A stretch of 64,000 nucleotides of DNA from Escherichia phage AV117. The notes below the pieces were generated by a model. That model worked only from the letters and a program-made list of their open reading frames with translations. It had not been told where the DNA came from and did not search any database. This document shows, piece by piece, positions 25,065 to 51,135 of this stretch. A program made the position numbers and the translations under genes. Numbering within the stretch: position 1 is the stretch's first letter; every line of letters starts with the position of its first letter. Location: the sequence record OR352947.1. One strand, 5' to 3'.

Positions 25065-25094
25065 ATTATACTCCAACCATCCTTGGTTGTAAAC
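25065..25094 (-). promoter_or_regulatory. early-type promoter
   Basis: minus-strand GTTTAC-N18-TATAAT with embedded CAACCA/TGGTTG inverted repeat. Confidence 0.5.
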
Positions 25095-25098
25095 TGAT

Positions 25099-26031
25099 TT
25101 ATGATTTTAATGCATTCATTGCGTTAAAAAGTTTAGAGTACTGCAACTGGAGCTTGGTAACTACTTGTTGAGCATCACGAAGCTTAGCTTGTGCTTTGTC
25201 AAGTTCAACAGACAGTTGGTCCGCAGTGGCTTTGATTTGATTATAATAGTAATCTTCGGCAGGAAGAAGACCGTTAGAGATTTCCAGTTTAGTCGACGGT
25301 GTGCCATTAAACATAACAGGTTGTGCTGAAGCCGCATTAATCTTACCGATAGTCGGGGCGACAATAATTGACGCTTCGAACGTTGCATTTTCCTTTTTAA
25401 GATTTTTATAATATTCAGAGTCTTTGTGCCACCATGGCGCAGGAACCTTTTTACCAATAGATACACGAGCCTGGATAGCGATATGGCCCTTATTCTTGAT
25501 AACGTCGATAATATTAAGCTCACGAGAATAAATTGCTTTAATCTGGTAAATATTATCACCTAACACTTCCAACGCTTGGTGGAATACACGAGCAACGTTA
25601 TCATTCTTAGGTTTATACGTAAGAGTGAACTCGTTCTCACTGATAACCATGATTTCTAACTTATCGTAAGTATATTTCAAATGTTTCATGTTAATTGCTT
25701 GAGGACGAATACGAGAAGCAATGGCCATCAGATTGTTAAGGTTATTTCTGAACTGTTTAGCAAAATATTGTCCTTCACCGCCAATACAAAAATTACGAAG
25801 TTTCTGTTTGGCTAATAAACGACTGAACTCGCCATTTTTAATGAACTCTTTAACTGGTGTGTTAGTAACGCATTCAAATTGAGTAAACTTACGAGAAGTA
25901 ATCCCATAATATGAACAGATTTCCTCAATCTCTTCAGGAGTCTTTACAGGCATACGGATAGGATTAGGTCCTGGGGTATATGCGTTCGAGGTAAATTCTT
26001 TGATAAGTTCTCTACGTGTAATAAAAGCCAT
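25099..26031 (-). CDS. hypothetical protein with C-terminal coiled coil (paralog family member 2)
   Basis: 310 aa; NNLMAIASRIR block resembles FMAVSARLQ of 26087..27082. Confidence 0.55.
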   Translation of the reverse strand: MAFITRRELIKEFTSNAYTPGPNPIRMPVKTPEEIEEICSYYGITSRKFTQFECVTNTPVKEFIKNGEFSRLLAKQKLRNFCIGGEGQYFAKQFRNNLNNLMAIASRIRPQAINMKHLKYTYDKLEIMVISENEFTLTYKPKNDNVARVFHQALEVLGDNIYQIKAIYSRELNIIDVIKNKGHIAIQARVSIGKKVPAPWWHKDSEYYKNLKKENATFEASIIVAPTIGKINAASAQPVMFNGTPSTKLEISNGLLPAEDYYYNQIKATADQLSVELDKAQAKLRDAQQVVTKLQLQYSKLFNAMNALKS

Positions 26032-26057
26032 TTTATATTCCTCATGTTGAAAAATTT

Positions 26058-26087
26058 ATTATACTCCAACCATCCCTGGTTGTACAT
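26058..26087 (-). promoter_or_regulatory. early-type promoter (variant -35)
   Basis: near-copy of the 25065 cassette (ttatactccaaccatccctggttgtaca). Confidence 0.45.
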
Positions 26088-27082
26088 CATTCCTTAAGAA
26101 GTTTTACTACTTGAATAAGATTAGCTCGTTCCGTTTTATTTTTACCATTTAAGCCTGCTAATCGTGAGATTTCATCATCAGTCTGTTGAATAGTTACATT
26201 AAGTTCGTTAATCAAAGCTTCAAAGTATTTGATTTGCTCAGCATGTTTTGATTCAAATTTCTGAACCGGAATAACGTCTTGGTTCAGTTCATCAATAAGG
26301 TCTTTAAGAGCATCTTCTTGGTTGATATCATATTCAACTTCTTTTATTTCTTCAACGAGCTCGTCTTTATATCTAACGTCTTTTAGTCCTGGTGCTGGTC
26401 CTGAAATCTCTTCTTTAAGAGTACAAACATATCCAATACGGTATCCAATGCCGTCTCGCTTGATATCAACTTCGTCAATAAATCCACAATGTTTAAGACC
26501 AGAGCCGATTAGGTCAAAATATCCTTGACGTCGTCCTTCAAACGTTACACGAACTACTAAGACAGTTTTACCTGCAACCTTTTGAAGCTCACATTTATAA
26601 AAGTTTGTTGAACCTGAATACCGTGGATGAGTTTTAAAGTTCATCTGACGATCTAGGCCCATTTGTAAGCGTGCTGATACGGCCATAAAACGTGTTTGGT
26701 TCTCGTTAAGATGAGCAACAATCCATTTCAAAGGCATTTTACACTGTTCACGACCGAACAAATCAGTACGTCCTAGATTACGCAGAATGTTGTTAGAGTT
26801 AATCATCGACAGAACGTTAAGTTTATTCAGCGCGCTGAAGATTCCATCAGCCATTGATTTTCCGTAACCTTTACACGCTTTAATAAGCGCTCGCGGTAGA
26901 TTAGTATAAATTTCAGACGGCATATGAAAATCAAATTTACTAGTCAGTAATTGATGAACTTGGATAGCAATTTGCTCATAATTAAGTGCTCTGCGATCAT
27001 TATGGTCTTTAAACCACACTTTAATCTGTGAAGCACATAAACCGTTAATTTCATGTTTTACCGCATCAGATGTAATGCTCAT
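26087..27082 (-). CDS. hypothetical protein with C-terminal coiled coil (paralog family member 3)
   Basis: 331 aa; C-terminal heptad-rich tail. Confidence 0.55.
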   Translation of the reverse strand: MSITSDAVKHEINGLCASQIKVWFKDHNDRRALNYEQIAIQVHQLLTSKFDFHMPSEIYTNLPRALIKACKGYGKSMADGIFSALNKLNVLSMINSNNILRNLGRTDLFGREQCKMPLKWIVAHLNENQTRFMAVSARLQMGLDRQMNFKTHPRYSGSTNFYKCELQKVAGKTVLVVRVTFEGRRQGYFDLIGSGLKHCGFIDEVDIKRDGIGYRIGYVCTLKEEISGPAPGLKDVRYKDELVEEIKEVEYDINQEDALKDLIDELNQDVIPVQKFESKHAEQIKYFEALINELNVTIQQTDDEISRLAGLNGKNKTERANLIQVVKLLKE

Positions 27083-27144
27083 AACTATTTCCTCAGATTG
27101 AATTGGAACTCAAAACCATTATAACCCGTCCTTGGGTAAAGCGT

Positions 27145-27672
27145 TTATGCGTGAACCGTCTTTAAACGTTCTTCAAATTTCCGAAGAGTACTAATACGTT
27201 CTGCTTTCTGTTTTGTATAGTTTGCAATACGTTCTGAAGTGAGAGCGTATCGTTCATTTACTGTTTCTTTCATGAAGTCAGGGATTTCACGAGAAGCTTT
27301 AATTTCATCAAACTTATCGAGTACTGCCTGGTCTTCAGCGATTAAATTTTCGTACATCTCGATATCTTTCTTGATAAACTCGATATCTTCCTGGGTTACT
27401 TTGGATAAACGAGATGCTTTATCCTTTTTGTACTGCTCGTTAGTTTCACGAGACCAGAATAATGTACGTTTTTTGTTAGTGTTTTTGTAGACTTCCACAA
27501 TTCCAACTGAATCGATGATAGCAATCCAATTCCAGCGAGATTTGAAAATCTGACCTCCGTCTACGGTAATCTCGTTACCATAAGCAACGTCATTAAAGAA
27601 CTTGCTTTGTGCTTCAGATTTAAATTTACCGTCGTTATAATTTACCAGGTTGAAAATATCTTTAGCGTTCAT
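27145..27672 (-). CDS. hypothetical protein
   Basis: 175 aa ORF with helical C-terminus. Confidence 0.5.
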   Translation of the reverse strand: MNAKDIFNLVNYNDGKFKSEAQSKFFNDVAYGNEITVDGGQIFKSRWNWIAIIDSVGIVEVYKNTNKKRTLFWSRETNEQYKKDKASRLSKVTQEDIEFIKKDIEMYENLIAEDQAVLDKFDEIKASREIPDFMKETVNERYALTSERIANYTKQKAERISTLRKFEERLKTVHA

Positions 27673-27699
27673 GTTTTACCTCCAGTAGTTGATAGGTCT

Positions 27700-27728
27700 A
27701 TAATAACATAACCATAGACCTTGTAAAC
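27700..27728 (-). promoter_or_regulatory. early-type promoter
   Basis: minus-strand GTTTAC-N17-TATTAT; AGGTCTAT/ATAGACCT inverted repeat spans the -10. Confidence 0.55.
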
Positions 27729-27730
27729 AA

Positions 27731-28156: not shown

Positions 28157-29158
28157 TTATTTCAGTAAAGTTACTTCAGAGATTTCCTCCCAACCATCTT
28201 TATCAGTTGAAATAAAATCTGCTACATAAAGAGCCGTACGTAATGATACATTGCGAAGACGAGATACGTTGGCCTTCATCCAGGACAATGCTTTATACGT
28301 TTCTGCATCTGTCAGACCACGTTTCTGCATCATGTCAGTAGATAATATTACATCTTCAACTCGAACCATAATCTCTTCATTAGAGTGTACTCCGAGGTCG
28401 AGATACACTGAACGAGATACTAAAGCTTGAAGGTGTGGGGCAAGTTTCGAACCGCGTTCTAACTCTTTATCGATATCAACGTTTGTAATGAAAACGATAG
28501 TACCTTCAAACTCAAATTCTTTATCAATACCCTTATCATCGAGATAAGATGACGCAGTGCTCCAGCAAACTTTGCGTTTATCTCCAGTATCTAATGCTGC
28601 TTTAAGAAGGTTCAAGATGTCCATATCCGAGAATACGTCAACGTCGTCGATTAAGAGAACGCTGTCTGCATCACGGTTGAGCCAAAGTTGTTCGTAAAGG
28701 CCAATACCAGAGATTTTACCATTAATGCTTTTGTATTTGATGAAACCATTATCATTAGCATTATTAAGTGCTTTATCCAGAGAATACGTCTTACCAATAC
28801 CAGCTGCACCTGAAATAATGAGTGAACGAATTTTGCCATCGATAATGCCATTCGTCATCATGTTCATTACTTTAAAGCGTTTGTTGATACGAGTTTTCAT
28901 ATCTTCAGTGCTTTCAACAACTGCAACTGGTGATGTCTCAACTCCTTCCATTACGATGTCTGATTTGAAGACCCATACTCCACGTTCAGAACCATCAATC
29001 ATAACGAAAATTTTACCATCACCTAAGTGGGAACATTCAGGATTAAGCTTTGCCGGGAACCATGTCTTTGTGGCAACATAAGAACCAGAGATTTCGTTAT
29101 TACGATAGATACCTTTTTTGATTTGAACGTTGAACATTTTATTCTCCAATTTACTCAT
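28157..29158 (-). CDS. AAA+/P-loop ATPase
   Basis: 333 aa; Walker A GAAGIGKT, Walker B VLLIDDVD. Confidence 0.65.
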   Translation of the reverse strand: MSKLENKMFNVQIKKGIYRNNEISGSYVATKTWFPAKLNPECSHLGDGKIFVMIDGSERGVWVFKSDIVMEGVETSPVAVVESTEDMKTRINKRFKVMNMMTNGIIDGKIRSLIISGAAGIGKTYSLDKALNNANDNGFIKYKSINGKISGIGLYEQLWLNRDADSVLLIDDVDVFSDMDILNLLKAALDTGDKRKVCWSTASSYLDDKGIDKEFEFEGTIVFITNVDIDKELERGSKLAPHLQALVSRSVYLDLGVHSNEEIMVRVEDVILSTDMMQKRGLTDAETYKALSWMKANVSRLRNVSLRTALYVADFISTDKDGWEEISEVTLLK

Positions 29159-29175
29159 TTCGTTTCGATAGGTCT

Positions 29176-29204
29176 ATAATAACATATCCTAAAAGCATGT
29201 ACAC
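29176..29204 (-). promoter_or_regulatory. early-type promoter
   Basis: minus-strand GTGTAC-N17-TATTAT upstream of the ATPase gene. Confidence 0.45.
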
Positions 29205-29235
29205 TACTTTTTTAAAAATATTTTAACCCCCTAAA

Positions 29236-29251
29236 GGGACCCGAAGGTCCC
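29236..29251 (-). repeat. GGGACC-UUCG-GGUCCC stem-loop (copy of 47735..47750 element)
   Basis: cccccctaaagggacccgaaggtcccc shared with 47726..47751; lies 3' of upstream gene and 5' of a promoter. Confidence 0.6.
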
Positions 29252-29256
29252 CACAT

Positions 29257-29520: not shown

Positions 29521-29551
29521 ATTTACCTCAAGTTAATGGTTATTTATCTAC

Positions 29552-31732: not shown

Positions 31733-31867
31733 TTTACCATACTCGTTTCAATAAGATTCACTATGCCGTTTACCATGTTATAAGTAAACATCGGATAATT
31801 GTATTGTACTACAACATAAGCGATAAGCAAAAGTTTCATTTTGTTCTCCATTTGTTTTGGTAGGACT

Positions 31868-31897
31868 ACTATAACATAGTCCTACCAAGACGTAAAC
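31868..31897 (-). promoter_or_regulatory. early-type promoter with perfect palindrome
   Basis: GTTTAC-N18-TATAGT; GGTAGGACTA-ctataacat-AGTCCTACC palindrome 31859..31886. Confidence 0.55.
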
Positions 31898-32320: not shown

Positions 32321-32349
32321 ACTATAACACAACCTGAGGAGAAGTAAAC
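32321..32349 (-). promoter_or_regulatory. early-type promoter
   Basis: minus-strand GTTTAC-N17-TATAGT. Confidence 0.5.
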
Positions 32350-32359
32350 TGCTAAATGC

Positions 32360-32388
32360 AAAAAAGCCCCAACCGTAAGGAAGGGGCT
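32360..32388 (-). terminator. rho-independent terminator
   Basis: minus-strand GCCCC-N12-GGGGC hairpin followed by U6. Confidence 0.6.
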
Positions 32389-32394
32389 AGTAAA

Positions 32395-35973: not shown

Positions 35974-36002
35974 ATAGTAACACATCTAGAGGAGAAGTAA
36001 AC
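35974..36002 (-). promoter_or_regulatory. early-type promoter (regB)
   Basis: minus-strand GTTTAC-N17-TACTAT. Confidence 0.55.
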
Positions 36003-37973: not shown

Positions 37974-38246
37974 ATTATTTCTCTTAAGGTTTGGGCCATT
38001 CCGTGGCACATGAATTGTCCATTTCTGTATTTACCCATTACCGCACTTGGGCTCGACCTTATTACAGGTTGGCGGGAATCCCTCATAGAATCATGAGGTC
38101 CAGGTTGTTCCCATGTTATTTGAATGTAAATATTTTTGCCGTAATACTTATACTAGTGTGGCTTCATTAAAATTTTTTCATCGAGTCATTTCACCTCTCC
38201 AAGTAATTATGAATATACTATCACAATTTTAGGAGAAAGTAAACTG

Positions 38247-38890: not shown

Positions 38891-38953
38891 TTTTGTTTCC
38901 TTGTTTGTTTTGATAGAGTAATTATACCATATTAATACTTAAGCGTAAACAAT

Positions 38954-39634: not shown

Positions 39635-39661
39635 AATTTCCTCCAAGTAGTTGATGAATGT

Positions 39662-39691
39662 ATAGTATCAAAACCCTTGGAGGAAGTAAAC
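39662..39691 (-). promoter_or_regulatory. early-type promoter (denV)
   Basis: minus-strand GTTTAC-N18-TACTAT. Confidence 0.5.
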
Positions 39692-39692: not shown

Positions 39693-39974
39693 CTATTTTT
39701 CTGAAGCGCCCGAAATATATTTTTCAAGACGTTGTTTCATCAGCGAGCCGTTCTTAGCGATTTCTTCCGGTTTATCGCACATGCGCAACAAGGCTTCAAG
39801 CTTAACGATATCACTGGTACGTTCAAATTTGCGAGTATCTATCTTACTAGCAAGTTCAGAAATACGTGCTAATAGACTTTCAGCTTCAACCAAAGCTGCA
39901 CCTAGCTTAGTCGCAAATGTGTCAGTAGCTTCGTTAAGAATAGATTCTGATAAAAATTCACTATATGTTTTCAT
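39693..39974 (-). CDS. internal (capsid-packaged) protein with CTS
   Basis: start at ATG 39974 giving [11 protein letters not shown]; ATGA overlap with lysozyme stop. Confidence 0.65.
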
Positions 39975-40459: not shown

Positions 40460-40493
40460 AATACCTCCCACGTTTATAGGAGGTATTTATTAC

Positions 40494-42126: not shown

Positions 42127-42127
42127 A

Positions 42128-42433
42128 TTATTTTCCTCGACATTCTTTAATGAAATTTTCTAGATTGGTAGATTCAATAGCTTTTTTACGAGCTTCTGCG
42201 TGTTCTTCTTCGGACAATTTACGTTTATAATTGACCCAGACATTATGGTCGAAACCAGTCGTGGCATATAATAACAATGCTCCAACGAATAGCAAAAACG
42301 GCGATAAGAATACAAAACCAGGAACACCATCCATATCGTAAGCCTTTTGTAATACTGCAACAGAAAGAGCTACGTAAAAAGGTGATGCAAGTATTGTTAA
42401 AAGACCAATTCGGTTGGTTTCTGTTAATTTCAT
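42128..42433 (-). CDS. hypothetical membrane protein (C-terminal ENFIKECR motif)
   Basis: 101 aa; two TM segments; C-terminal ENFIKECRGK. Confidence 0.5.
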   Translation of the reverse strand: MKLTETNRIGLLTILASPFYVALSVAVLQKAYDMDGVPGFVFLSPFLLFVGALLLYATTGFDHNVWVNYKRKLSEEEHAEARKKAIESTNLENFIKECRGK

Positions 42434-42459
42434 AATATTCTCCTCAAGTTGATAGGACT

Positions 42460-42487
42460 ACTATAACATAGCCCTATCAGTTTGTAC
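42460..42487 (-). promoter_or_regulatory. early-type promoter with palindrome
   Basis: GATAGGACTA-ctataacat-AGCCCTATC around -10; variant -35. Confidence 0.45.
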
Positions 42488-42489
42488 AC

Positions 42490-42690
42490 TTATTTTGACA
42501 TTTCTTCGATGTCACGACGATACCCATCACGAACTTCACGAAGAGCTTCAAGGCCACACATAGGCTCGATACCAGTAATGTGAACTTGATTAATCTGATA
42601 CTCTACATCTTCTAACTGAGCGAAAACATAACGACGTTCTGCTGCACAACCAGGTTTAGCTTTACCGAAACGTTTATTCAAAGTAGTCAT
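42490..42690 (-). CDS. hypothetical protein
   Basis: start set at ATG 42690 (MTTLNKRF) downstream of promoter. Confidence 0.4.
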   Translation of the reverse strand: MTTLNKRFGKAKPGCAAERRYVFAQLEDVEYQINQVHITGIEPMCGLEALREVRDGYRRDIEEMSK

Positions 42691-42728
42691 TTTTATATCT
42701 CCATTCACTCATTTGTTTTGATAGGTCT

Positions 42729-42758
42729 ATAGTATCAACAACTACAGACCTTGTAAAC
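42729..42758 (-). promoter_or_regulatory. early-type promoter
   Basis: minus-strand GTTTAC-N18-TACTAT; AGGTCT/AGACCT inverted repeat. Confidence 0.5.
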
Positions 42759-42771
42759 AGTTTTTGCGAAA

Positions 42772-43728
42772 TTATTTGAAAGGTTTTACCATATGAAAGT
42801 TTTGTTTGAAACGCTTGACGTAATCGTCATGTCCTAAGCTTTGGTACATACTTACTACTTTGCTATAATTTTCCCAAGCGAACTCACGGAACCAACCGGA
42901 GGTGATGCTTGTGCAGACTTTTTCTAATGCCATCATGAAACTGGCTTCAGGGTTAATTTCAAAGTTATTAGGAATCTGAGAACGTTCTAACGCTAGTACA
43001 CATGATTCTTCGTATACACCGGCCAATTTGACCATTTCTGGTAACGATTCGAACTTCTCGCGTGAGGTCATGACTTCAGAACCGTCTTTCATGTAAAACG
43101 TATATGCTGGACGGTCTGTTAGTGCAATGGCTTCATGAATAGTATCATGGTCATATGTATAGATATCATCTTTAAAGAACGCACTTTTAGAAGTGTCAAG
43201 AACTGGGTGAGCATAGTTCAAGGTTTCTTTCTGGCGTTTCAGCATAATTTCAGTAAGTTCATCGTTCAGTATAACACCTTTACCACGAAGATACTGAATA
43301 TGGTTCATAGTCTTTAAAAAGAATGGATTATTTTTCTTGAAACGATGAGACATCTTAATTGCAAGGCACATCTCAGGAGTTGCCCAGTAAAACCCGTTCA
43401 AACGGTCTTTAGTCAAATTTTTCTTGGCGTATTTTAAAAGGTCATAAGAAGACGTGAAATCTTCAGGAGTGAGTTCACCGACCAATTCACGGACATTAGT
43501 GATTGCCGGAACAATATATGCTTCAAAATGAGTTTCGCGTCCATTATGGAAGCATTTGAAAACTTGGACATCAGGGTTATCTTGATGAACATATACACCC
43601 ATCATTTGATTTTTAAATGCATTCCAAGAACTTTGGTCTGCAATAAAGTCCCAATCACTATTTTTGATAGCGTTAGAATCAATAAGACCGTGATAGTGAA
43701 GTGCACGAGAACCAATAACTAACATCAT
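42772..43728 (-). CDS. hypothetical protein with weak nucleotidyltransferase-like N-terminus
   Basis: 318 aa; IGSRALHYHG...SDWDF loosely fits GS...DxD. Confidence 0.45.
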   Translation of the reverse strand: MMLVIGSRALHYHGLIDSNAIKNSDWDFIADQSSWNAFKNQMMGVYVHQDNPDVQVFKCFHNGRETHFEAYIVPAITNVRELVGELTPEDFTSSYDLLKYAKKNLTKDRLNGFYWATPEMCLAIKMSHRFKKNNPFFLKTMNHIQYLRGKGVILNDELTEIMLKRQKETLNYAHPVLDTSKSAFFKDDIYTYDHDTIHEAIALTDRPAYTFYMKDGSEVMTSREKFESLPEMVKLAGVYEESCVLALERSQIPNNFEINPEASFMMALEKVCTSITSGWFREFAWENYSKVVSMYQSLGHDDYVKRFKQNFHMVKPFK

Positions 43729-43752
43729 AATATTTTCCTCGGATTAATTAAC

Positions 43753-43992
43753 TTAAATTTCACGACATGCGATATTATATTCATCCCAGAGGTCATCGTG
43801 TGAAGCCTCTACCAATGGAACGATTGTACCATTTATATCTTCATTATAAGGGCAAATTGTACAATGTGCATCTTCGAATCGGATGCCTTTGTGTTCAGAT
43901 TTTTTATAACGCATATCGAATATCTTTGCAAACTTTTCACGAGTAATGGTTTTAGCAACCACTTCGGTTCCAACACTTTCATAATAAATCAT
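43753..43992 (-). CDS. hypothetical protein
   Basis: start set at ATG 43992; C-terminal NIACREI. Confidence 0.45.
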   Translation of the reverse strand: MIYYESVGTEVVAKTITREKFAKIFDMRYKKSEHKGIRFEDAHCTICPYNEDINGTIVPLVEASHDDLWDEYNIACREI

Positions 43993-44020
43993 TGTGGACT
44001 CCATTTAATTTGATAGGACT

Positions 44021-44050
44021 ACTATAACATAGTCCTATCTTGTTGTAAAC
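44021..44050 (-). promoter_or_regulatory. early-type promoter with perfect palindrome
   Basis: GTTTAC-N18-TATAGT; GATAGGACTA-ctataacat-AGTCCTATC identical to cassette at 50742..50769. Confidence 0.55.
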
Positions 44051-44054
44051 TGTT

Positions 44055-44252
44055 TTAGCAAGAATAACTAGATGATACCCAGCCTTGAACAGTGATACTA
44101 TTGTGGGATAATGAGATCGCGTCCTGGAGATTCAGACCTGCGTTATCTTCAATCCATAACGTAACTTCTTCGCGTTCTTCTGTTGCAATTTGGAACAGGT
44201 TTTCCAGAGCAGCTACTGCCGTACGTACAGCACAATCTAATTCACGAGACAT
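44055..44252 (-). CDS. hypothetical protein, SSxxC-tail family member
   Basis: 65 aa; C-terminal QGWVSSSYSC. Confidence 0.5.
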   Translation of the reverse strand: MSRELDCAVRTAVAALENLFQIATEEREEVTLWIEDNAGLNLQDAISLSHNSITVQGWVSSSYSC

Positions 44253-44261
44253 ATGGTTTCC

Positions 44262-44534
44262 TTAACAAGTGTGAGAAGATGCGATCCAACCACCAGTTTC
44301 GAGGCTCAGGTTGTAGTCGTATTGGTAAACGTCGGCCCATTCAGCATAGCCATTTTTTGTACAACGTTCAAGATCGGCTTTAAGTTGTCCGGGTGAATGA
44401 TAGGTTCCACCCATACCATAAGCTGGACACAAGTCGAATGATGTGTTTTGTTTATCAGCAATTTCTTTGGCAGCCTCAATAGCTGCATAGATTTTTGCTA
44501 CAGCTTCAGCCAGTTCGGTTTGTTCTTTAGACAT
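44262..44534 (-). CDS. hypothetical protein, SSxxC-tail family member
   Basis: 90 aa; C-terminal GGWIASSHTC. Confidence 0.5.
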   Translation of the reverse strand: MSKEQTELAEAVAKIYAAIEAAKEIADKQNTSFDLCPAYGMGGTYHSPGQLKADLERCTKNGYAEWADVYQYDYNLSLETGGWIASSHTC

Positions 44535-44543
44535 AGTGATTCC

Positions 44544-44849
44544 TTAGCACAACGCAGAAGACGAAACCCAAGCACCTTCAGTAATAATGTAACCATTACC
44601 TTCACGCTTAACATCGCCACCATTATTTTCAATTTCATCTTTCATCCACTGGGATACGATTTCACCCTTAGGATAATAAGTACGACCACTACCATAATCA
44701 CCTACAGAAAATGATACGGCATATTGGTCTGCGATCTTTGTTGCTTCTTCTTCGATACGTTCAGCTTGATTCAGAAGTTTATAAATTGCATCTGAAGCGG
44801 ATTTGGCATCATTAAACTCTGGTACTTTAATTTCAATAATCTTACTCAT
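44544..44849 (-). CDS. hypothetical protein, SSxxC-tail family member
   Basis: 101 aa; C-terminal GAWVSSSALC; ATGA overlap with upstream gene. Confidence 0.5.
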   Translation of the reverse strand: MSKIIEIKVPEFNDAKSASDAIYKLLNQAERIEEEATKIADQYAVSFSVGDYGSGRTYYPKGEIVSQWMKDEIENNGGDVKREGNGYIITEGAWVSSSALC

Positions 44850-45205
44850 TTTCTACATTCCTTAATAAAGTTTTCGATTGTTTCATTTTCACGTCTAGCT
44901 AGGAGTTCATTATAACTAATCATTTGAGAAGCGTAAACCTTTTTATTTTTCTTGTTATGGTTTATAAAATCGTAGTAAAAATAGACTACAGTACAAAATG
45001 ATGCGATGGATGCAAAGGCTTGTGTATACCGTAAGTCCTGCCATTGGTCTGTGAATCCGCCAGTGTTCCCTATAAATCCTAACACAACGCCGTCAATAAG
45101 AAATCCAACTAATCCAAAGGCAAATCCCATGCCAATACTCATAATAAAAATTAGAATGTTCTCACCAAGAGAAGGCCATACGGTTAAGAGTTGAGGCTTT
45201 TGCAT
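44846..45205 (-). CDS. hypothetical membrane protein (C-terminal ENFIKECR motif)
   Basis: 119 aa; three hydrophobic segments; C-terminal ENFIKECRK. Confidence 0.5.
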   Translation of the reverse strand: MQKPQLLTVWPSLGENILIFIMSIGMGFAFGLVGFLIDGVVLGFIGNTGGFTDQWQDLRYTQAFASIASFCTVVYFYYDFINHNKKNKKVYASQMISYNELLARRENETIENFIKECRK

Positions 45206-45579
45206 CTTATTTCCTTAACGAATTCCATAGCTTCTTCATATTCATACTTTTTAACAGCTTCATCATACTGAGCTTGGGCTTTTGCGCACTGAACTTTCCA
45301 CTCACGAACTCGAGCTCTGTGATGACGGCCTTGGTGCCAATATCCTGCCCAATTAATAGGCATTAATAAAAACGGTACAATAAGTGGTGCGACGAACATT
45401 AATGAAAACGCTGCATCAGACGATATAACTTTATTGGAATCTAAAACAGCTCCTATAATCATAAAGATTAAAAACGCTAAAGCTAAAATAGGGCCAAATA
45501 GTACTTCATTTGGGATTAATTTACGTTTGTATTCGTATGCCCAGGGCTTAATTGGCATGTACAGGGTTGGCTTTGACAT
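45184..45579 (-). CDS. hypothetical membrane protein
   Basis: start set at ATG 45579; TM segment; C-terminal EFVKEIRCK. Confidence 0.45.
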   Translation of the reverse strand: MSKPTLYMPIKPWAYEYKRKLIPNEVLFGPILALAFLIFMIIGAVLDSNKVISSDAAFSLMFVAPLIVPFLLMPINWAGYWHQGRHHRARVREWKVQCAKAQAQYDEAVKKYEYEEAMEFVKEIRCKSLNS

Positions 45580-46144
45580 ATTCTCTACATTCCATAATAA
45601 ATTGCTCAAGGATTAAATTGTTAGTGAAATTAGGACTAACAACCATGGTTTCATAAAGCGCATCAATAGCACTTAAAGCATCAACTCTTTTAAGCAAAGG
45701 CTTGCCTTCATACATAGTTTCAGAATCGACGATTAACGTAAAGTAATATTTTTTATTATCGACTAGAACTTCAGTATCGATATAAAACATGTTAGACCTT
45801 AAAAGCTTGTCTCTAAAGCCTAAGTAATCATCTGAACGTTCACTGATATAGTCCCATTCAGTGTTTAAACAACAAACAGACCACGTAGGAGCAACGAAAT
45901 CAGTGAATCTAATATCATGGTCTGCAACTAGTTTAGCAATAGCTCCGATATCATGAATCATAATACCTGGGGCTAATAAAGATTTTCGGTTATTTGCATA
46001 TTCAGTTGTCTCATAAGAAGACGACCAGTACCATTTACGTCCAGTTGCAACATATCGTAATGAATCAACTAAAGACGTAGGTGGATTTACCTTATTTCGG
46101 AACTCTTCGAACATTGAGTCAATATCATTATTTTGGTTTCGCAT
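45548..46144 (-). CDS. hypothetical protein
   Basis: start set at ATG 46144; contains EQFIMECRE near C-terminus. Confidence 0.45.
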   Translation of the reverse strand: MRNQNNDIDSMFEEFRNKVNPPTSLVDSLRYVATGRKWYWSSSYETTEYANNRKSLLAPGIMIHDIGAIAKLVADHDIRFTDFVAPTWSVCCLNTEWDYISERSDDYLGFRDKLLRSNMFYIDTEVLVDNKKYYFTLIVDSETMYEGKPLLKRVDALSAIDALYETMVVSPNFTNNLILEQFIMECREYVKANPVHAN

Positions 46145-46159
46145 GTTAACTCCTTTATT

Positions 46160-46185
46160 ATCCAAAAGGAGGACCGGAGTCCTCC
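46160..46185 (-). terminator. candidate terminator hairpin
   Basis: GGAGGAC-N4-GUCCUCC hairpin with U4 (minus) and U-rich tract (plus); possibly bidirectional. Confidence 0.45.
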
Positions 46186-46193
46186 GTATTATT

Positions 46194-46802
46194 TTATTTC
46201 AAAGAGTTAATATATTCTTGTACATCGGCAGAAGTGGTTTCGACACCGGTTGGAGTGCCATTGAACGTTTCAACACGAGTCAGAGTGTCTTCGATATCAA
46301 CCTTAGTTAGTGCAGCGATTTCAATTACATCATCGGCCGTAGAGATACCAAGGGCATTGGCTGCTCGAGTTTCACGAATGTATTCGAGTTTGATTGCCAG
46401 ATTCTGACGAGCATCATCAAGTTCAACCACCTTACGAGCAATTTCAATTCGCATAGCGGCATACCCGTCAGCTTTTGTATTAAGTTGTTCGGCAGTTCGA
46501 CGATACAGAAGACCAAGCTTAGCATGCATGGTAACATCTTGTCCTTCAGCCAGGAGCTTACGAATTTCACGTTCCTTAGAAGCTGCTTGCTTGTTCTTTT
46601 CATTAACAAGTTCGCGAATACGTTTTTCTTCATTAATAGATTTAACAGAAGCCGTTTTTAGTTCTTTGATTTGGGTAATCAACTTATCTGCAGCTGCGTT
46701 ATACTGTTCTTCGACAGTCAGATTTTTAGCCATAGCAGTACCCAGTTTAGTGCGGATGAATTCAACAAGTTTCTTCAGTGTGTTCATATTATTACCTTTC
46801 AA
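46194..46802 (-). CDS. coiled-coil protein, PspA/IM30-like pattern
   Basis: 202 aa; continuous heptad-type helices resembling phage-shock protein A; no enzymatic motif. Confidence 0.5.
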
Positions 46803-46809
46803 TTGGTGG

Positions 46810-46861
46810 TTTATTATCCAACGAGAGCATTATACTCTGCTCTCAAGAGTTTGTAAATTAT
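46810..46861 (-). repeat. 52-bp promoter-containing repeat, copy B
   Basis: matches 16545..16596 with 3 mismatches. Confidence 0.8.
46829..46857 (-). promoter_or_regulatory. early-type promoter
   Basis: minus-strand TTTACA-N17-TATAAT inside repeat copy B. Confidence 0.55.
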
Positions 46862-47085
46862 TTTTTAATCAAATTGACATAAAACTCGGCGTCTTCTGGG
46901 TGCATGCCTTCGCAGTATTCTTCAACCATGAACTTCTTAACAGCTTCATAAGGACCGCTCAGATTAAGCTCAGTTGTCCAGAATTTGGAATCTTGGACTG
47001 AATCGATACGAACTTCAGGGTGACGGTTGCGAATAACTTCTTCGGTGTATTCATAATCAACGACATCAATACTAACTGTAGCCAT
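46858..47085 (-). CDS. hypothetical protein
   Basis: 75 aa acidic ORF. Confidence 0.45.
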   Translation of the reverse strand: MATVSIDVVDYEYTEEVIRNRHPEVRIDSVQDSKFWTTELNLSGPYEAVKKFMVEEYCEGMHPEDAEFYVNLIKK

Positions 47086-47114
47086 TTTGTTTCTCCTCTG
47101 TAGTTGATAAGTCT

Positions 47115-47143
47115 ATAGTATCACCATCCTTGGTGTTTGTACA
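47115..47143 (-). promoter_or_regulatory. early-type promoter (variant -35)
   Basis: TGTACA-N17-TACTAT; shares ccatccttgg core with 25065 cassette. Confidence 0.45.
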
Positions 47144-47647
47144 TCATTTATTTTTAATTTTGCAAATTTTTTCTGCTTCAACAATTGCAGCGTCAATGAT
47201 GCTTTGTGCAATTTTATTACTAGTTGACCTGGCAATCACACTAAGAACAATTTCTTTTTCTTCACCACCCCAACCCCAAGTCCTTTGTTCGTGGGTACCT
47301 TTAACTACAGCTGAAACTTCAACAGAACGTCCACCATCAGAAGTTTTAACATCTACAACCCAATCACCATCTTTCTCTTCTACCCTTGATTTATCCCAAG
47401 AAATACTAATATATGATTCGCTATCAATAGAAGTCGCCGGGTTTTTCTCTACCGTAAGACCTTCACTTTCCAGCCATTCAATAGTATTTGCGCATAAATC
47501 TGAAGAACACCTAATCGGAAACCGGCAAGATTTTTCACCTTTAGCTGCAGCGTTATACATCTTTTCTAAAATACGCTTTTGCACGTTTTTAAAAATAGTT
47601 TCAGCAGATTCTTCAGATTTTTTATTCAGTTCAGTGTAAAGACTCAT
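47144..47647 (-). CDS. hypothetical protein
   Basis: 167 aa ORF. Confidence 0.5.
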   Translation of the reverse strand: MSLYTELNKKSEESAETIFKNVQKRILEKMYNAAAKGEKSCRFPIRCSSDLCANTIEWLESEGLTVEKNPATSIDSESYISISWDKSRVEEKDGDWVVDVKTSDGGRSVEVSAVVKGTHEQRTWGWGGEEKEIVLSVIARSTSNKIAQSIIDAAIVEAEKICKIKNK

Positions 47648-47674
47648 AATATTCTCCCCATGTTTTGATAGGTC

Positions 47675-47703
47675 TATAGTAACACATCTAGGGAAGAAGT
47701 AAA
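47675..47703 (-). promoter_or_regulatory. early-type promoter
   Basis: minus-strand GTTTAC-N17-TACTAT. Confidence 0.55.
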
Positions 47704-47734
47704 CAACTTTTTCAGTAAGTTATAGACCCCCTAA

Positions 47735-47750
47735 AGGGACCCGAAGGTCC
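47735..47750 (-). repeat. GGGACC-UUCG-GGUCCC stem-loop (copy of 29236..29251 element)
   Basis: 26-nt ccccctaaagggacccgaaggtcccc identical to 29226..29251. Confidence 0.6.
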
Positions 47751-47757
47751 CCATTCT

Positions 47758-48384
47758 TTACTTACGAGTTTTTGCATACTGAGCAGCGTCAGCAGCCAAA
47801 CGACCTGCCTGACGAAGTTTTTCTTTAATCGCATCGTGAAGTGGTTGAGTATACTTCAAACCTTCGATAGTCAAATAAAGACGATAAAGGTCTGGGGTAT
47901 CAAGGTTGTTGATATGTTGGCCATTGCGAAGAATATTGAATTCACGAACGAGTGAAGATGTATCGGATTCAATATCGCGAACAAGCGAAGATAGTTGTTT
48001 ATATTTTTTTTCCAGGCTAGAAGTATCAAACTTAAGAGCAGGAGCTTTAGGAGTTGCTTTTACTTCCGGCTTAGGCTCAGGTTTTGCTATTGCTTTAGGG
48101 GTCGCAGGTTTAGGAATGGTAGGAGCAGGTTTTACTTTAGGCGAACCCGATTTAGCAGAAACACCACCACTAACAATATCTTTGAATGCTTTAGAAGCTC
48201 TGTAATATTCTTTTTGGCTGGAAGTGTCGATACCGTACATGGCTTGAACGTTTTTGAAAAACTCTGTACTAGTTTTTGTACCAGAAATAGCATCGTAAGC
48301 AGCTTGCCATTTCTCTTTTGTCATACGTATACCGGCTTCGGTGATTACTTCCGTTTCGGCTAAAAATTCATTAAAAGTATACAT
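47758..48384 (-). CDS. internal-protein-like protein with variant CTS and Pro/Lys-rich linker
   Basis: 208 aa; N-terminal MYTFNEFLAETE resembles MKTYxEFIxE CTS; central PKVKPAPTIPKPATPKAIAKPEPKPEVKATPK repeats. Confidence 0.55.
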   Translation of the reverse strand: MYTFNEFLAETEVITEAGIRMTKEKWQAAYDAISGTKTSTEFFKNVQAMYGIDTSSQKEYYRASKAFKDIVSGGVSAKSGSPKVKPAPTIPKPATPKAIAKPEPKPEVKATPKAPALKFDTSSLEKKYKQLSSLVRDIESDTSSLVREFNILRNGQHINNLDTPDLYRLYLTIEGLKYTQPLHDAIKEKLRQAGRLAADAAQYAKTRK

Positions 48385-48428
48385 TGATGGTCCTTAGAAA
48401 GTAGGTTTATTGTTTACTATATTTATAC

Positions 48429-48456
48429 AAAAAAGCCCCAACCTTTCGGAAGGGGC
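48429..48456 (-). terminator. rho-independent terminator
   Basis: minus-strand GCCCC-N12-GGGGC hairpin followed by U6; near-copy of 32360..32388 terminator. Confidence 0.6.
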
Positions 48457-48499
48457 TATATACCTTGTCGGGGTTTCCACCTACTAGGTAAGTGTTTTT

Positions 48500-48657
48500 A
48501 CGAAACGCCGGGATTCGAACCCGGTTATTAAGCAGTTGACGCTACTCAATATTTTTAAAAGGCCATATCTCGACCATATCCGAACGTTCCGTCAAAAACG
48601 CTACTCGGCTTACGGCAAAGATATTTCCTCGAATCGATAATTCTGTGCGCCGTTTCT
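48500..48657 (-). ncRNA. candidate tRNA-like small stable RNA
   Basis: minus-strand CCGGG-UUCGAAU-CCCGG T-arm with adjacent CGUUUCG acceptor strand and distal complementary GAAACG; about 158 nt, too long for a canonical tRNA. Confidence 0.25.
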
Positions 48658-48759
48658 GCTGTGATGTAAGGGGGTATTAACAAATCGTAAAGATTTATTA
48701 AGACCAGTCCTTACTCAGGGAACATCAGTCCGACGTCTTGCCGGTAGCGACCCGGCTTC

Positions 48760-49104
48760 TTATTTTGGCATATCATCAATTTGCTCTCGACGCCGACGCC
48801 ATAGATTAATCGCTTCATAAACACATTCAGCATTTGGTATATGGCGACAATAGTATAGTGATTCGCGTTTCTGGAACCGATGTTGTAATGGAATTTCGTT
48901 TAAAAGGTCTTTACGGTCAAAGTATTCAAAACTAGTTAACCCGGAACGGTTTTTAAGAAACTTCCAATGTCCGAATTCATTTTGAAAATAAACGTAATCA
49001 GCGTGTTGATATAACGAATTAATCAACCGGTCGGAAATAACTGTATCCTGTTCGTTAAAATAAAACGTTAAATCATGAACTACCAAATAAATATTGCCTT
49101 TCAT
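48760..49104 (-). CDS. hypothetical protein
   Basis: start set at ATG 49104 (MKGNIYLVVHDL) after GAGGAAAA, avoiding overlap with tRNA. Confidence 0.5.
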   Translation of the reverse strand: MKGNIYLVVHDLTFYFNEQDTVISDRLINSLYQHADYVYFQNEFGHWKFLKNRSGLTSFEYFDRKDLLNEIPLQHRFQKRESLYYCRHIPNAECVYEAINLWRRRREQIDDMPK

Positions 49105-49122
49105 ATTTTCCTCACTTGAAGT

Positions 49123-49199
<77 letters not shown>

Positions 49200-49202
49200 G
49201 AT

Positions 49203-49277
49203 TGGTGACCCTGGCTGGTTTCGATCCAGCTACCTATCAGTTATGAGCTGACAGCTCTCCCATTGAGCTACAGGGCC
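49203..49277 (-). tRNA. tRNA with CAU anticodon (Met or lysidine-type Ile)
   Basis: 75 nt cloverleaf: acceptor GGCCCUG/CAGGGUC, anticodon loop CUCAUAA, T-arm GCUGG-AUCGAAA-CCAGC, encoded CCA. Confidence 0.7.
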
Positions 49278-49356
49278 TTAATAACTTTCTATTATGAAAG
49301 GCACTTTAGAGCACCTTTGGTAATAGAGGGTATGAATTAATAATAACACATAATTC

Positions 49357-49872
49357 TTAAAGCAAATCAACCATTTTAACGGTTGGCAAAACAATTTCTT
49401 TTTCAATATAAGCAAATTCGACACGTTCAACTACACGCAAGAAATCGTAATCATAGTATTCAGAAGCATAACCAAGAATATCAATAAGACCTTGAGATAT
49501 CTCATCGCCTTTCACAAAGAACAGGTCGAATACACGTGATTCATCTTCTTCAGATTTATTACCGAGGTCGACTTCAATATCAAAGACCTTTTTAATAAAT
49601 TCCGGATAAAGCTGGTCTGAGAACAGCCCTTCAACCAAGTATTCATAGATTAAAAGCGAGCAATCACTGAATGGTGTATTACCACAATAACGTTCGGCTT
49701 TGGTGCTAGAATGACGGCTCTTAAATTTCTTCAAGAGATATTTAAACTGTTGGAGCTCATGCTCTTCCACTTCAAACAATGTTTTGGTTTTATAGTTGTC
49801 ACCATCATTTTCATAGGTAGTGACATCAATTACGTAACCCTTAGGAATTGTACTGCCTAAACAAATATTCAT
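49357..49872 (-). CDS. hypothetical protein
   Basis: 171 aa ORF. Confidence 0.5.
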   Translation of the reverse strand: MNICLGSTIPKGYVIDVTTYENDGDNYKTKTLFEVEEHELQQFKYLLKKFKSRHSSTKAERYCGNTPFSDCSLLIYEYLVEGLFSDQLYPEFIKKVFDIEVDLGNKSEEDESRVFDLFFVKGDEISQGLIDILGYASEYYDYDFLRVVERVEFAYIEKEIVLPTVKMVDLL

Positions 49873-49876
49873 TTAC

Positions 49877-50167
49877 TCACCGTACCATATTAATGTAATT
49901 ATATTCAATGCAACGTAATTTCAAAGGATTCTTGAAAATATCATATTCAAGAGGACCTTTTTCTGTTTCAATAAAGAAATCAAAGTTCACACTATTAAAT
50001 TTGCGGTCTTCCCAAAGTAATTTAACCTGTGAAGATGAACGGTCGACGTAAACCTTTTCAACTTCAAAGTGGGTCAAAATACCATAGTAATCGACTAGTG
50101 CTTTAGCTGCAGCTCGGTCGCTTTCATATCCATTCTCAACGGATTTTACCTTAGCATAAAGAATCAT
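49877..50167 (-). CDS. hypothetical protein
   Basis: 96 aa ORF. Confidence 0.45.
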   Translation of the reverse strand: MILYAKVKSVENGYESDRAAAKALVDYYGILTHFEVEKVYVDRSSSQVKLLWEDRKFNSVNFDFFIETEKGPLEYDIFKNPLKLRCIEYNYINMVR

Positions 50168-50526
50168 GAATGTTCCACCATTTCAAAGGTATGAGCATCA
50201 ACAATATGATACCAGTCAAAATTTTCTTCTGCGTTTTTATAAATTTCGCGAAGAGCCTCAACAGTTTTTCCTGTAGCAACAAGGTCGTCAATACCACCAA
50301 GAGGATAACAGTCATAACCAGCAAACAGAAGGAAATTAATAGTTTCTGTAGGTTCTGGATGCAGAACTCCGTTATCGTCTACCACTTCAAAGAAAGTGTA
50401 AGAAGGAGTACAAGTTTTAATCCAGGCCCATGCTTGAGCTGCTGAATCAAACGGATTACGGAATAAACGACAATCAGGGTCTTTAGAAGGATTTGCTTCA
50501 AAATCAGCATATACATGATATTTCAT
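50164..50526 (-). CDS. hypothetical protein
   Basis: start set at ATG 50526 (MKYHVYADF). Confidence 0.45.
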   Translation of the reverse strand: MKYHVYADFEANPSKDPDCRLFRNPFDSAAQAWAWIKTCTPSYTFFEVVDDNGVLHPEPTETINFLLFAGYDCYPLGGIDDLVATGKTVEALREIYKNAEENFDWYHIVDAHTFEMVEHS

Positions 50527-50527
50527 T

Positions 50528-50734
50528 TTACTCACCTTTTGCAATTTTATCCATAACGATAGCGATTAAGCCGATTAGAAATGCTACTACCAATGAGATA
50601 GAGTTTTCAGTTGTTGTCAGTAGTCCACAAATGAATCCTACAAACATCGAAAAACTAAAAGCCATTGAAGCAATTACTACAGCAACATTACGAATCAGTT
50701 CAGCGCGTTTCATTTTATTTCTCCATTTACTCAT
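50528..50734 (-). CDS. hypothetical membrane protein
   Basis: 68 aa; two hydrophobic segments. Confidence 0.45.
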   Translation of the reverse strand: MSKWRNKMKRAELIRNVAVVIASMAFSFSMFVGFICGLLTTTENSISLVVAFLIGLIAIVMDKIAKGE

Positions 50735-50750
50735 TTGATTTGATAGGACT

Positions 50751-50780
50751 ACTATAACATAGTCCTATCGTGTTGTAAAC
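50751..50780 (-). promoter_or_regulatory. early-type promoter with perfect palindrome
   Basis: GTTTAC-N18-TATAGT; cassette identical to 44012..44050. Confidence 0.55.
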
Positions 50781-50783
50781 TAC

Positions 50784-51071
50784 TTACAGAAGAGTTTTTG
50801 CAATAATTTTAAGCTGAGCTACAGAAATATGCTTAGCTTTAAACAGTGCAGTCTCTTCAGCCGGAGAGATAACAATAGTAGCGCCATCTTTCTTAGCAGA
50901 CCATCCATCCCCTAAGTAAACAGTACCTTTTACTTCTTCGCCGTCAACCAGACTAATCATTGGTTTACCCTCACGTCCTTTATTTGCTTTAATAACTTCG
51001 GAAGTAAGGGTTGCTTCAGTCAGAGTAGAAACGTTAGCAACAGGTGATATAAATTCTTTATAGGTTTTCAT
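50784..51071 (-). CDS. ipI: internal protein I-like (capsid-packaged, CTS)
   Basis: 95 aa; N-terminal MKTYKEFISPVA; sits next to 57B as ipI does in T4. Confidence 0.7.
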   Translation of the reverse strand: MKTYKEFISPVANVSTLTEATLTSEVIKANKGREGKPMISLVDGEEVKGTVYLGDGWSAKKDGATIVISPAEETALFKAKHISVAQLKIIAKTLL

Positions 51072-51105
51072 TTTATTTCCTTGAGGTCGTTTATTTGATA
51101 GGATG

Positions 51106-51135
51106 ATAGTATCACGCCATCATCCTTATGTAAAC
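51106..51135 (-). promoter_or_regulatory. early-type promoter
   Basis: GTTTAC-N18-TACTAT with AGGATGAT/ATCATCCT inverted repeat. Confidence 0.5.

Follow-up and report, generated by a model that had tools for sequence, protein, structure and literature searches.

Escherichia phage AV117 carries about 20 to 25 copies of the T-even early-promoter cassette, which precede accessory genes, in the early region covered by the window analyzed here (the whole 64,000-nucleotide (nt) stretch of sequence record OR352947.1). Among the cassettes of the window, 15 of 21 have a promoter spacer that is complementary to sequence past the -10 (each p <= 0.04 versus shuffled spacers), and this fit was lost when spacers were permuted among the window cassettes (p < 1/5000). 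We consider it probable, at roughly 70%, that these elements are early-promoter cassettes whose dyad represents an RNA hairpin of transcripts reading through from upstream, and that the cassettes act as boundaries of gene modules.

Over their full length, bases 40000-52000 are ~96% identical to over 100 genomes of Mosigvirus (RB69/JS09-like T4-type coliphages). On this comparison, the window is a Mosigvirus genome segment equivalent to T4 nrdC-to-ipI, and the interval 25065-51135, which holds most of the cassettes, is the classic "hyperplastic" early region.

Early-promoter cassettes in the AV117 early region

The first-pass annotation had described at least 15 early-promoter cassettes in 25065-51135, built on minus-strand GTTTAC-N17/18-TAYWAT elements. 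The exact pattern was found 11 times in the window, always on the minus strand, compared to 0.22 +/- 0.48 matches expected from shuffles, and 9 of the 11 matches fell inside 25065-51135. A relaxed motif scan and a scan with a two-block position weight matrix (PWM) trained on cassettes of other phages only gave 20 cassettes, all of them on the minus strand; the plus strand and shuffled sequences gave none. The PWM cassettes are intergenic and span 16.8-51.1 kb (the nrdC-to-ipI region), and the PWM scan found no cassette among the baseplate genes of the window. As 17 of the 20 are within 25065-51135, the addition of 46829 and 44909, which do not have the conserved start-site motif, brings this interval to 19 cassettes, in agreement with the "at least 15" of the first-pass annotation. 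Cassettes outside the interval are located at 24091, 22686, 17992, 17289, 16864 and ~16560. A generic scan for sigma-70 promoters and terminators was uninformative (73 matches versus 68 expected).

The arrangement of the cassettes is uniform. The median distance between the stop codon of the upstream gene and the -35 is 3 nt, and an A-tract in the 12 nt ahead of the -35 is followed by GTTTAC, a spacer of 17 or 18 nt that mostly ends in TGn, a -10 of the form TACTAT, TATAAT, TATAGT or TATTAT, a discriminator and start region with the consensus A-G/A-n-C-C-T-A-T-C-A-A, a short A-rich leader, a GGAG-type Shine-Dalgarno (SD) sequence and ATG. The early-promoter consensus was likewise recovered from T4 loci. 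In a pooled set of 141 unique cassettes, which combined the window with T4, JS98 and 17 protein-anchored IMG/VR T-even loci, 108 have an A at position 7 past the -10, where transcription would be expected to start. A pattern scan of IMG/VR with GTTTAC-N14-16-TGTTATAGT was dropped, as the matches listed were mostly unrelated contigs. The ATG is mostly 26-30 nt past the -10 (modal 28) in the pooled set, with others at 34-49 nt, and mostly 26-28 nt past it in the window, where a long-leader variant of 37-38 nt contains AAATGAGTAAATGGAG. This variant, AAATGAGT(A/G)AAT(T)GGAG, is common to three cassettes (50711-50741, 42690-42728 and 29135-29165 on the minus strand), has an SD-less ATG in frame with the true start and also occurs in JS98-like loci. 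Because of their match to the T4 early-promoter consensus and their homology to T4 promoter regions, the cassettes are probably host sigma-70 promoters that would fire immediately after infection; for regB, early-promoter transcription has been described in the literature.

The palindromes reported by the first-pass annotation exist as well. Four copies of the 26-bp dyad ATAGGACTA-N8-TAGTCCTAT, of which none is expected by chance, were found at 31860, 42452, 44013 and 50743, each one base away from where it had been placed, and the cores at 44013 and 50743 are indeed identical. The copy at 31860 has a compensated outer G..C pair and the copy at 42452 has a single change that leaves a G.U pair on the minus (sense) strand only. 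The other arms that had been pointed out, AGGTCTAT/ATAGACCT and AGGTCTGTAG/CTATAGACCT, are present in cassettes 27700 and 42729, respectively.

Complementarity between promoter spacers and downstream sequence

The complementary arms fall into two classes. In class A the arms flank the -10, with a 3' arm that corresponds to the discriminator up to ~+2 and leaves the SD untouched; window examples are the AGGACTA palindromes noted by the first-pass annotation, the ipI promoter and the cassettes with arms AGGTCTAT/ATAGACCT, GAGAGC/GCTCTC and ATAGGAAG/CTTCCTAT. In class B the SD region serves as the 3' arm, with the spacer as an anti-SD; this class is represented in the window by denV, regB, 32321, 47676, 17992 and the decayed cassette 38215 (Table 1). 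T4 has both classes, with class A at the ipI, trna.4, e.7, ipII (14-bp dyad) and mobD.2a promoters and class B at the denV, regB and nrdC.8 promoters. Complementarity between spacer and downstream sequence is thus a property common to T4 and not peculiar to AV117. The strongest examples found are in T4 (NC_000866), where the ipII and mobD.2a promoters, in the 65799 and 57990 regions, have 14-bp near-perfect dyads around the -10 with arms CTCCTAGAATTGTGA/TCACAATTCTAGGA and AAGTTGACAAGATT/AATCTTGTCAACT.

Across the pooled set, 82 of 141 cassettes were significant (41 class A and 41 class B), compared to ~7 expected. When 426 promoterless gene starts were searched with identical geometry, 10% were significant with a mean z of -0.1, versus 58% and a mean z of -2.6 for the cassettes (Mann-Whitney p 3e-24). 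The location of the 5' arm in the spacer follows from the design of this search, which was restricted to the spacer, and unrestricted minimum free energy folds, in which the longest helix straddles the -10 or start site in 60% of cassettes versus 35% of controls, provide weaker support.

The pairing is better conserved than the sequences that form it. Orthologous promoters (denV, ipI and mobD.2a) swap arm sequences and keep the pairing; beside the SD of denV, for example, Mosigvirus has CAAG/CTTG, T4 and JS98 have TGTAG/CTACA, and a further lineage has GTTTG/CAAAC. The arms of the T4 ipI promoter differ from those of the 51106 cassette of the window and are still complementary, and T4, JS98 and other phages carry compensated versions of the regB promoter. 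From an alignment of 12 class A sequences, an 11-bp consensus hairpin was obtained, in which 97% of cells are paired and 7 of the 11 pairs vary on both sides; the observed score was reached in 0 of 500 shuffles, and slid registers dropped to 30-68% paired. For class B, RNAalifold predicted no structure on a MAFFT alignment of denV and regB orthologues, as the stems are in different registers and were broken by the aligner; the case for class B is therefore made by duplex statistics of the single sequences and by accessibility rather than by column-wise covariation.

Strand was assessed by the non-Watson-Crick positions inside the helices, which replaced the weak comparison of mean duplex energies between sense and antisense strands. 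With a helix search that is symmetric for G.U and A.C, 42 internal G.U and 14 A.C positions were counted on the sense strand (28 versus 5 for class A alone), compared to a ratio of ~47:53 in shuffles. Together with the covarying arms, this bias points to a hairpin of sense-strand RNA and counts against a double-stranded operator or a cruciform; a hairpin of sense-strand DNA is less likely than one of RNA.

A mechanism can be proposed from this geometry. As the 5' arm would be encoded by the promoter spacer and so precede the predicted start site, RNA from the cassette's own promoter would be unable to fold the hairpin, while read-through RNA would be able to do so. In class B, the SD would therefore be masked in read-through RNA and stay open in own-promoter RNA; the predicted cost of opening the SD-to-AUG region is 3.8 kcal/mol for own RNA and 10.3 kcal/mol for read-through RNA (a penalty of 6.5), compared with 3.0 and 3.8 kcal/mol for class A. 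Window values rise from 3.0 to 13.5 kcal/mol for denV, from 4.9 to 11.9 for regB (both with stems of 10-11 bp) and from 3.2 to 10.8 for 32321. A class B protein would consequently be made only while its own early promoter fires. The masked read-through RNA may be shielded from RegB, as RegB is inhibited by RNA structure (PMC3014915), and may be exposed to Rho polarity because it is untranslated (PMC2988021). The prediction fits regB itself, since this gene is said to need tight control and its promoter is off after 2-3 min (PMC3014915). In class A, the hairpin could form a structural barrier or insulator in read-through RNA, and our guess would be that it serves as an attenuator or as a decay barrier between cistrons. 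Whether one rule holds across the T-even phages, with the early-promoter spacer doubling as the hairpin 5' arm that tells own from read-through transcripts, is a more tentative proposition, for which the odds are below even; under this rule, about 1/4-1/3 of cassettes would mask the SD, e.g., regB, denV and nrdC.8.

If this mechanism is true, class B proteins would be made only from promoter-proximal RNA during the 2-3 min of early-promoter firing, and read-through RNA would stay untranslated, resist RegB and be exposed to Rho polarity. A dense promoter array would then be insulated gene by gene, which could help to end early protein synthesis abruptly and could play a part in immediate-early versus delayed-early behavior. 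Early proteins that are toxic or dose-sensitive, the RegB nuclease among them, would be restricted in cis to one short burst. Insulation would also help to explain free module shuffling, as each module would have its own promoter, leader and read-through silencer.

Among other explanations, the proposal of the promoter-early stem-loop (PeSL) authors, that the stem-loops are terminators or attenuators which stop or damp polymerase from upstream promoters and so keep transcription from accumulating along the array, has the best prospects; it is compatible with a hairpin of read-through RNA, although we regard it as unlikely to be the explanation. It draws on the RB49 PeSL211/210 stem-loop, which in a transcriptional fusion lowered expression of the lacZ behind it to the same degree as rrnB T1 (PMC2839356), on the intergenic position of the hairpins just after the upstream stop codon, and on two cassettes that are preceded by separate stable hairpins or terminators. 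However, a U-tract (>= 5 T in 8 nt) follows none of the 82 significant stems, while the true terminators of the window (32356-32389 and 48425-48458) have one. Moreover, class B arms track and covary with the SD, for which a terminator has no need, and the stems are A/U-rich and 8-13 bp long, unlike the polyG/polyC stems of RB49. A canonical intrinsic terminator reading of the cassette stems was rejected on these grounds.

Breakpoints at cassettes and remaining explanations

The first-pass annotation had likened the cassettes to PeSL elements, which are proposed to drive modular shuffling, and had suggested looking for them at breakpoints between genomes. In a comparison with seven relatives that are 94-97% identical to the window, breakpoints do occur at cassettes: 32 breakpoint clusters were found, 29 of them at gene junctions, and 15 of these 29 were at cassette-bearing junctions, even though cassettes are present on only 19 of 64 junctions (30%; p about 0.01). 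Both the PeSL-like architecture and the enrichment of breakpoints support the PeSL reading. Four events consist of an open reading frame (ORF) between two cassettes in one genome versus a single cassette in the other (42489-42752, 50708-50782, 29133-29197 and 47050-47108). The event at 50708-50782 involves the palindromic cassette: in phage 55 and Mizar, two copies of it enclose an additional internal-protein-like gene (MKTYKEFI... in phage 55), and the single 50743 cassette of the window has the first copy's upstream flank fused to the second copy's leader. A 262-nt ORF module between cassettes 42729 and 42452 is absent from 4 relatives, and at cassette 47115 three relatives have 153-181 nt inserted between duplicated copies. 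At cassette 29176, LNA2 has 213 nt between duplicated copies and TH12 is without the upstream ORF from 29259. Replacement breakpoints were found at 47661, in the leader of cassette 47676, and at 36006, the -35 edge of the regB cassette, and a deletion breakpoint at 44938 was found in two relatives.

Cassettes share 35-92 nt at 75-100% identity, and cassette sequence of 35-90 nt recurs every 0.3-3 kb, so that homologous recombination can delete, insert or swap single-gene modules; recombination between cassettes may thus be what moves these modules. Events independent of cassettes include a homing endonuclease among the tRNAs, a 219-nt ORF at 40949-40955, the tk.x region and overlapping stop/start junctions. 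The 219-nt ORF is found between nudE and the next gene in 7 of 7 relatives and is absent from AV117, where the junction is an overlapping stop/start.

The coincidence of breakpoints and cassettes, including crossovers inside the -35 or the palindrome core, could also be expected if the palindromes acted in DNA, as cruciforms or single-strand hairpins cut or bound by structure-specific enzymes (endonuclease VII, gp46/47), and thereby formed recombination hot spots that render the cassettes mobile; RB49 PeSL mini-circles with crossovers in the loop (PMC2839356) would agree with this. We nevertheless consider it improbable. A cruciform would be hurt equally by G.T and A.C, yet G.U outnumbered A.C in the helices; class B arms are 25-30 nt apart, which is poor for extrusion; 35-90 nt of shared homology suffices for crossovers; and indels are as frequent at cassette-free junctions.

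The first-pass annotation had further suggested that a -10 palindrome could be a protein binding site. If a dimeric DNA-binding protein of phage or host origin used the palindrome as an operator to shut off some early promoters, this would account for the four cassettes with a near-identical 26-bp dyad over the -10, and the shut-off mechanism of T4 early promoters is not completely understood (PMC3014915). The arms, however, differ wholly in sequence while they remain complementary (AGGACTA, AGGTCTAT, AGGATGAT, GAGAGC and ATAGGAAG in the window; CTCCTAGAATTGTGA and GATGAGGTA in T4), orthologous promoters exchange them without loss of pairing, loop length varies from 8 to 30 nt, and the G.U bias is on the sense strand. 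In addition, a spacing of 17 bp between half-site centers is unusual for a helix-turn-helix dimer. This suggestion was therefore rejected, as no half-site is conserved at a fixed spacing among cassettes and orthologues, and the probability that we would still give it is very small. Judged by sequence comparison, the -10 palindromes are a family-wide, covarying feature of sense-strand RNA, which settles the choice between operator and structure. Least probable of all is that the complementarity is chance or a by-product of promoter constraints, since, even though spacers near the -35 are often TTCTCC-like and would pair trivially with GGAG-like SDs, composition-preserving spacer shuffles were beaten in 58% of cassettes, swapping spacers between cassettes destroyed the fit, SD-flanking bases covary and promoterless gene starts are without the feature, so that this explanation was rejected on the sequence statistics.

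Several points weigh against a read-through hairpin and against cassettes as module boundaries. The experimental evidence from the RB49 stem-loop supports termination or attenuation and not translational masking (PMC2839356), and class A stems leave the SD unmasked and have no U-tract (0 of 41). A hairpin is not obligatory, as 6 of 21 window cassettes were without a significant stem, and start sites were predicted here from promoter geometry. The count of 82 of 141 and the p-values of the G.U bias are optimistic, given that cassettes of related phages are phylogenetically non-independent, and the 12 sequences of the class A alignment were chosen for having stems. G.T pairs are tolerated in single-stranded DNA too, so that a sense-strand DNA hairpin could show the same bias. 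With regard to boundaries, the enrichment of 15 of 29 junction breakpoints is modest and the breakpoints are not all independent, and about half of the indel breakpoints are away from cassettes.

Cassette list and neighboring features

Table 1. Early-promoter cassettes and associated hairpins in the AV117 window (opening costs are predicted, own RNA -> read-through RNA)
Feature	Position	Strand	Details
ipI promoter (-35 to -10), class A	51106..51135	-	AGGATGAT/ATCATCCT flanking -10; E -14.4, p 0.013, PWM 45.7
Palindromic class A cassette	50743..50780	-	ATAGGACTA-TGTTATAG-TAGTCCTAT around TGnTATAGT; p 0.000; breakpoint; precedes trna.4 homologue
Class B cassette	47676..47704	-	spacer TTCTTCCC pairs with SD GGGGAGAA; opening cost 3.1 -> 7.5 kcal/mol
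Cassette with degenerate -35	47115..47144	-	ATGTAC + TACTAT; PWM 32.8; breakpoint
Class A cassette before e.6 homologue	46829..46858	-	GAGAGC/GCTCTC flank TATAAT; 94% identical copy at 16545-16597
Consensus promoter	44909..44938	-	GTTTAC-N18-TATAAT; hairpin not significant, p 0.95
Palindromic class A cassette	44013..44050	-	core identical to 50743 cassette
Class A cassette	42729..42758	-	AGGTCTGTAG/CTATAGACCT; one sense-strand G.U pair; upstream boundary of 262-nt ORF module
Palindromic class A cassette	42452..42489	-	-35 GTGTAC; G.U wobble; downstream boundary of 262-nt ORF module
denV promoter, class B	39662..39691	-	spacer TTCCTCCAAG pairs with SD CTTGGAGGAA; E -19.8, z -3.7
Promoter before internal-protein-like gene	38921..38950	-	weak stem only; hypervariable locus
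Decayed denV-type cassette, class B	38215..38244	-	followed by ATGACTCGATGA
regB promoter, class B	35974..36002	-	spacer TTCTCCTCTAG pairs with CTAGAGGAGAA, 11 bp over SD
Class B cassette	32321..32349	-	TTCTCCTC/GAGGAGAA; directly after intrinsic terminator
Palindromic class A cassette	31860..31897	-	extended 13-bp stem, CTTGGTAGGACTA/TAGTCCTACCAAG-like; E -22.5; precedes mobD.2a-like mini-gene
Cassette before nrdC.10 homologue	29176..29204	-	-35 GTGTAC; breakpoint
Class A cassette before nrdC.8 homologue	27700..27728	-	AGGTCTAT/ATAGACCT; T4 and JS98 orthologues are class B
Weaker cassette	26058..26087	-	ATGTAC...TATAAT; 96% copy of cassette 25065 core
Consensus promoter before nrdC.5-like gene	25065..25094	-	weak stem, p 0.09
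Class B cassette	17992..18020	-	outside 25065-51135; opening cost 2.1 -> 7.6 kcal/mol
Class A cassette	16864..16893	-	ATAGGAAG/CTTCCTAT; outside 25065-51135; found by PWM
UUCG-tetraloop hairpin, copy 1	29226-29249	-	~21 nt upstream of -35 of cassette 29176
UUCG-tetraloop hairpin, copy 2	47726-47749	-	3' untranslated region (UTR) of upstream gene, ~21 nt before -35 of cassette 47676
Intrinsic terminator	32356..32389	-	AGCCCC...GGGGCT + T-run; cassette 32321 follows at once

Two of the listed cassettes have duplicates with signs of decay. The class A core GAGAGC..TATAAT..GCTCTC is part of a 53-nt duplication between 16545-16597 and 46810-46862, 30 kb apart and 94% identical, and in the copy at 16545-16597 the -35 is degraded to TGCACA. 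On the minus strand, 38190-38244 contains a second, decayed version of the denV promoter and leader with ATGACTCGATGA after it; the true denV start, ATGACTCGTATC, is at 39646; this three-codon relic looks like the scar of a cassette-mediated rearrangement.

A further claim of the first-pass annotation, that some cassettes are paired with a UUCG stem-loop, holds for only two cassettes (29176 and 47676). The hairpins are two copies of an exact 24-nt repeat, GACCTTCGGGTCCCTTTAGGGGGT, that folds as GGGGACC-UUCG-GGUCCCU, and the one at 47726 belongs, together with its promoter, to a 92-nt hairpin-plus-promoter repeat. The intrinsic terminator at 32356 also has a second copy, at 48425-48458 on the minus strand (88% identical), where a gene start follows directly and there is no room for a promoter.

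By comparison with annotated relatives (phage 55 and Mizar) and T4, the minus strand to ~53 kb is the T4-type early region, with the gene order nrdC.x, mobD.x, rI, tk, vs, regB, denV, internal proteins, e, nudE, e.x, tRNAs, trna.x, ipI, 57B, 57A, 1, 3, 2 and 4; baseplate genes come next, on the plus strand. An Rfam scan of the window matched two tRNAs and nothing else. These tRNA genes, Arg-tct and Met-cat (49123-49277, minus strand), are the only two in the window, compared to eight in T4, and in Mizar they are separated by a NUMOD3 homing-endonuclease gene and tRNA-Asn (874 nt versus 75 nt). Five minus-strand genes open with a shared leader of ~10 codons, MKTY(K/Q)EFI.., the N-terminus that targets T4 internal proteins to the capsid (38520-38549, 38861-38890, 39185-39214, 39945-39974 and 51042-51071). 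Four of these genes are in tandem between e and regB, at the locus that is most variable among relatives, and the fifth is ipI.

Comparison with known T4-type systems

The promoters themselves show no essential difference from T4 early promoters (Pe, with the "uber" arrangement UP/-35/TGn/-10; PMC2988021). GTTTAC, the 17/18-nt spacer, TGn, TAnnnT, the A-tract and the +1 positions all correspond, and the orthologous T4 positions ipI, trna.4, denV, regB and nrdC.8 carry the same kind of cassette.

With regard to the tetraloops, GGGGACC-UUCG-GGUCCCU in the two 3' UTRs before cassettes 29176 and 47676 resembles the C(UUCG)G hairpins that Tuerk et al. reportedly described in T4 intercistronic regions in 1988. 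The difference is that AV117 has only two copies, which are separate from the promoter-embedded hairpins and are no general part of the cassettes. UUCG structures are also mentioned in PMC1702504.

PeSL elements (Arbiol et al. 2010, PMC2839356; Comeau et al. 2014, PMC4122927) consist of an A-rich upstream region, TTTACW-N17-TAYWAT in T-even phages, a stem-loop, an SD and ATG (PMC4122927, PMC2839356), and their stem-loops are commonly found between -35 and -10 or over the -10, always before the start site (PMC2839356). The AV117 cassettes are similarly intergenic repeats of hyperplastic regions on the transcribed strand (all 20 PWM matches being on the minus strand), with an A/T-rich upstream tract, a sigma-70-type early promoter, known here from sequence, and a stem-loop in or next to this promoter (significant in 15 of 21) followed by SD and ATG. 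They also flank single ORFs and coincide with indel and replacement breakpoints between close relatives, including the two-cassettes-versus-one events. Differences are found in the host lineage, as Mosigvirus was not analyzed in the PeSL papers, in the stems, which are without U-tracts and are not polyG/polyC, and in the reach of about half of the significant stems to the SD (class B), an arrangement that the PeSL papers do not mention. All PeSL features that can be tested in sequence were found here, which supports that the cassettes are of the PeSL kind already described, in another genus. As initially reported, the finding recovers two known elements, T4 early promoters and PeSL cassettes, from a further genus, which is useful for annotation and not surprising. 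What may be under-described is the SD-masking class, in which half of the structured cassettes place an anti-SD inside the promoter spacer. In the two PeSL papers and two T4 reviews, neither masking of the SD by such stems nor a difference between own and read-through RNA is mentioned, and full-text searches gave no statement on early-promoter spacers that pair with the SD. As none of these sources covers the older T4 literature, an earlier description is possible and priority is not claimed.

The closest precedent for class B is the control of T4 e, soc, 49 and I-TevI, in which a promoter is inside an SD-masking hairpin and longer upstream transcripts fold the SD and AUG (PMC3014915). In these genes, a proximal promoter inside the hairpin gives shorter transcripts that are free of the 5' arm and can be translated. 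Class B would have this geometry, with a predicted start at the conserved A, 7 nt past the -10, and a 5' arm in the spacer, to which the search was restricted. In the known genes, however, the internal promoter is late (or middle) and translation is delayed, whereas the class B promoters are early and translation would be confined to the first minutes. As the proximal promoter is early, rather than late or middle, class B would represent a variant, and not a member, of the e/soc/49/I-TevI type of control.

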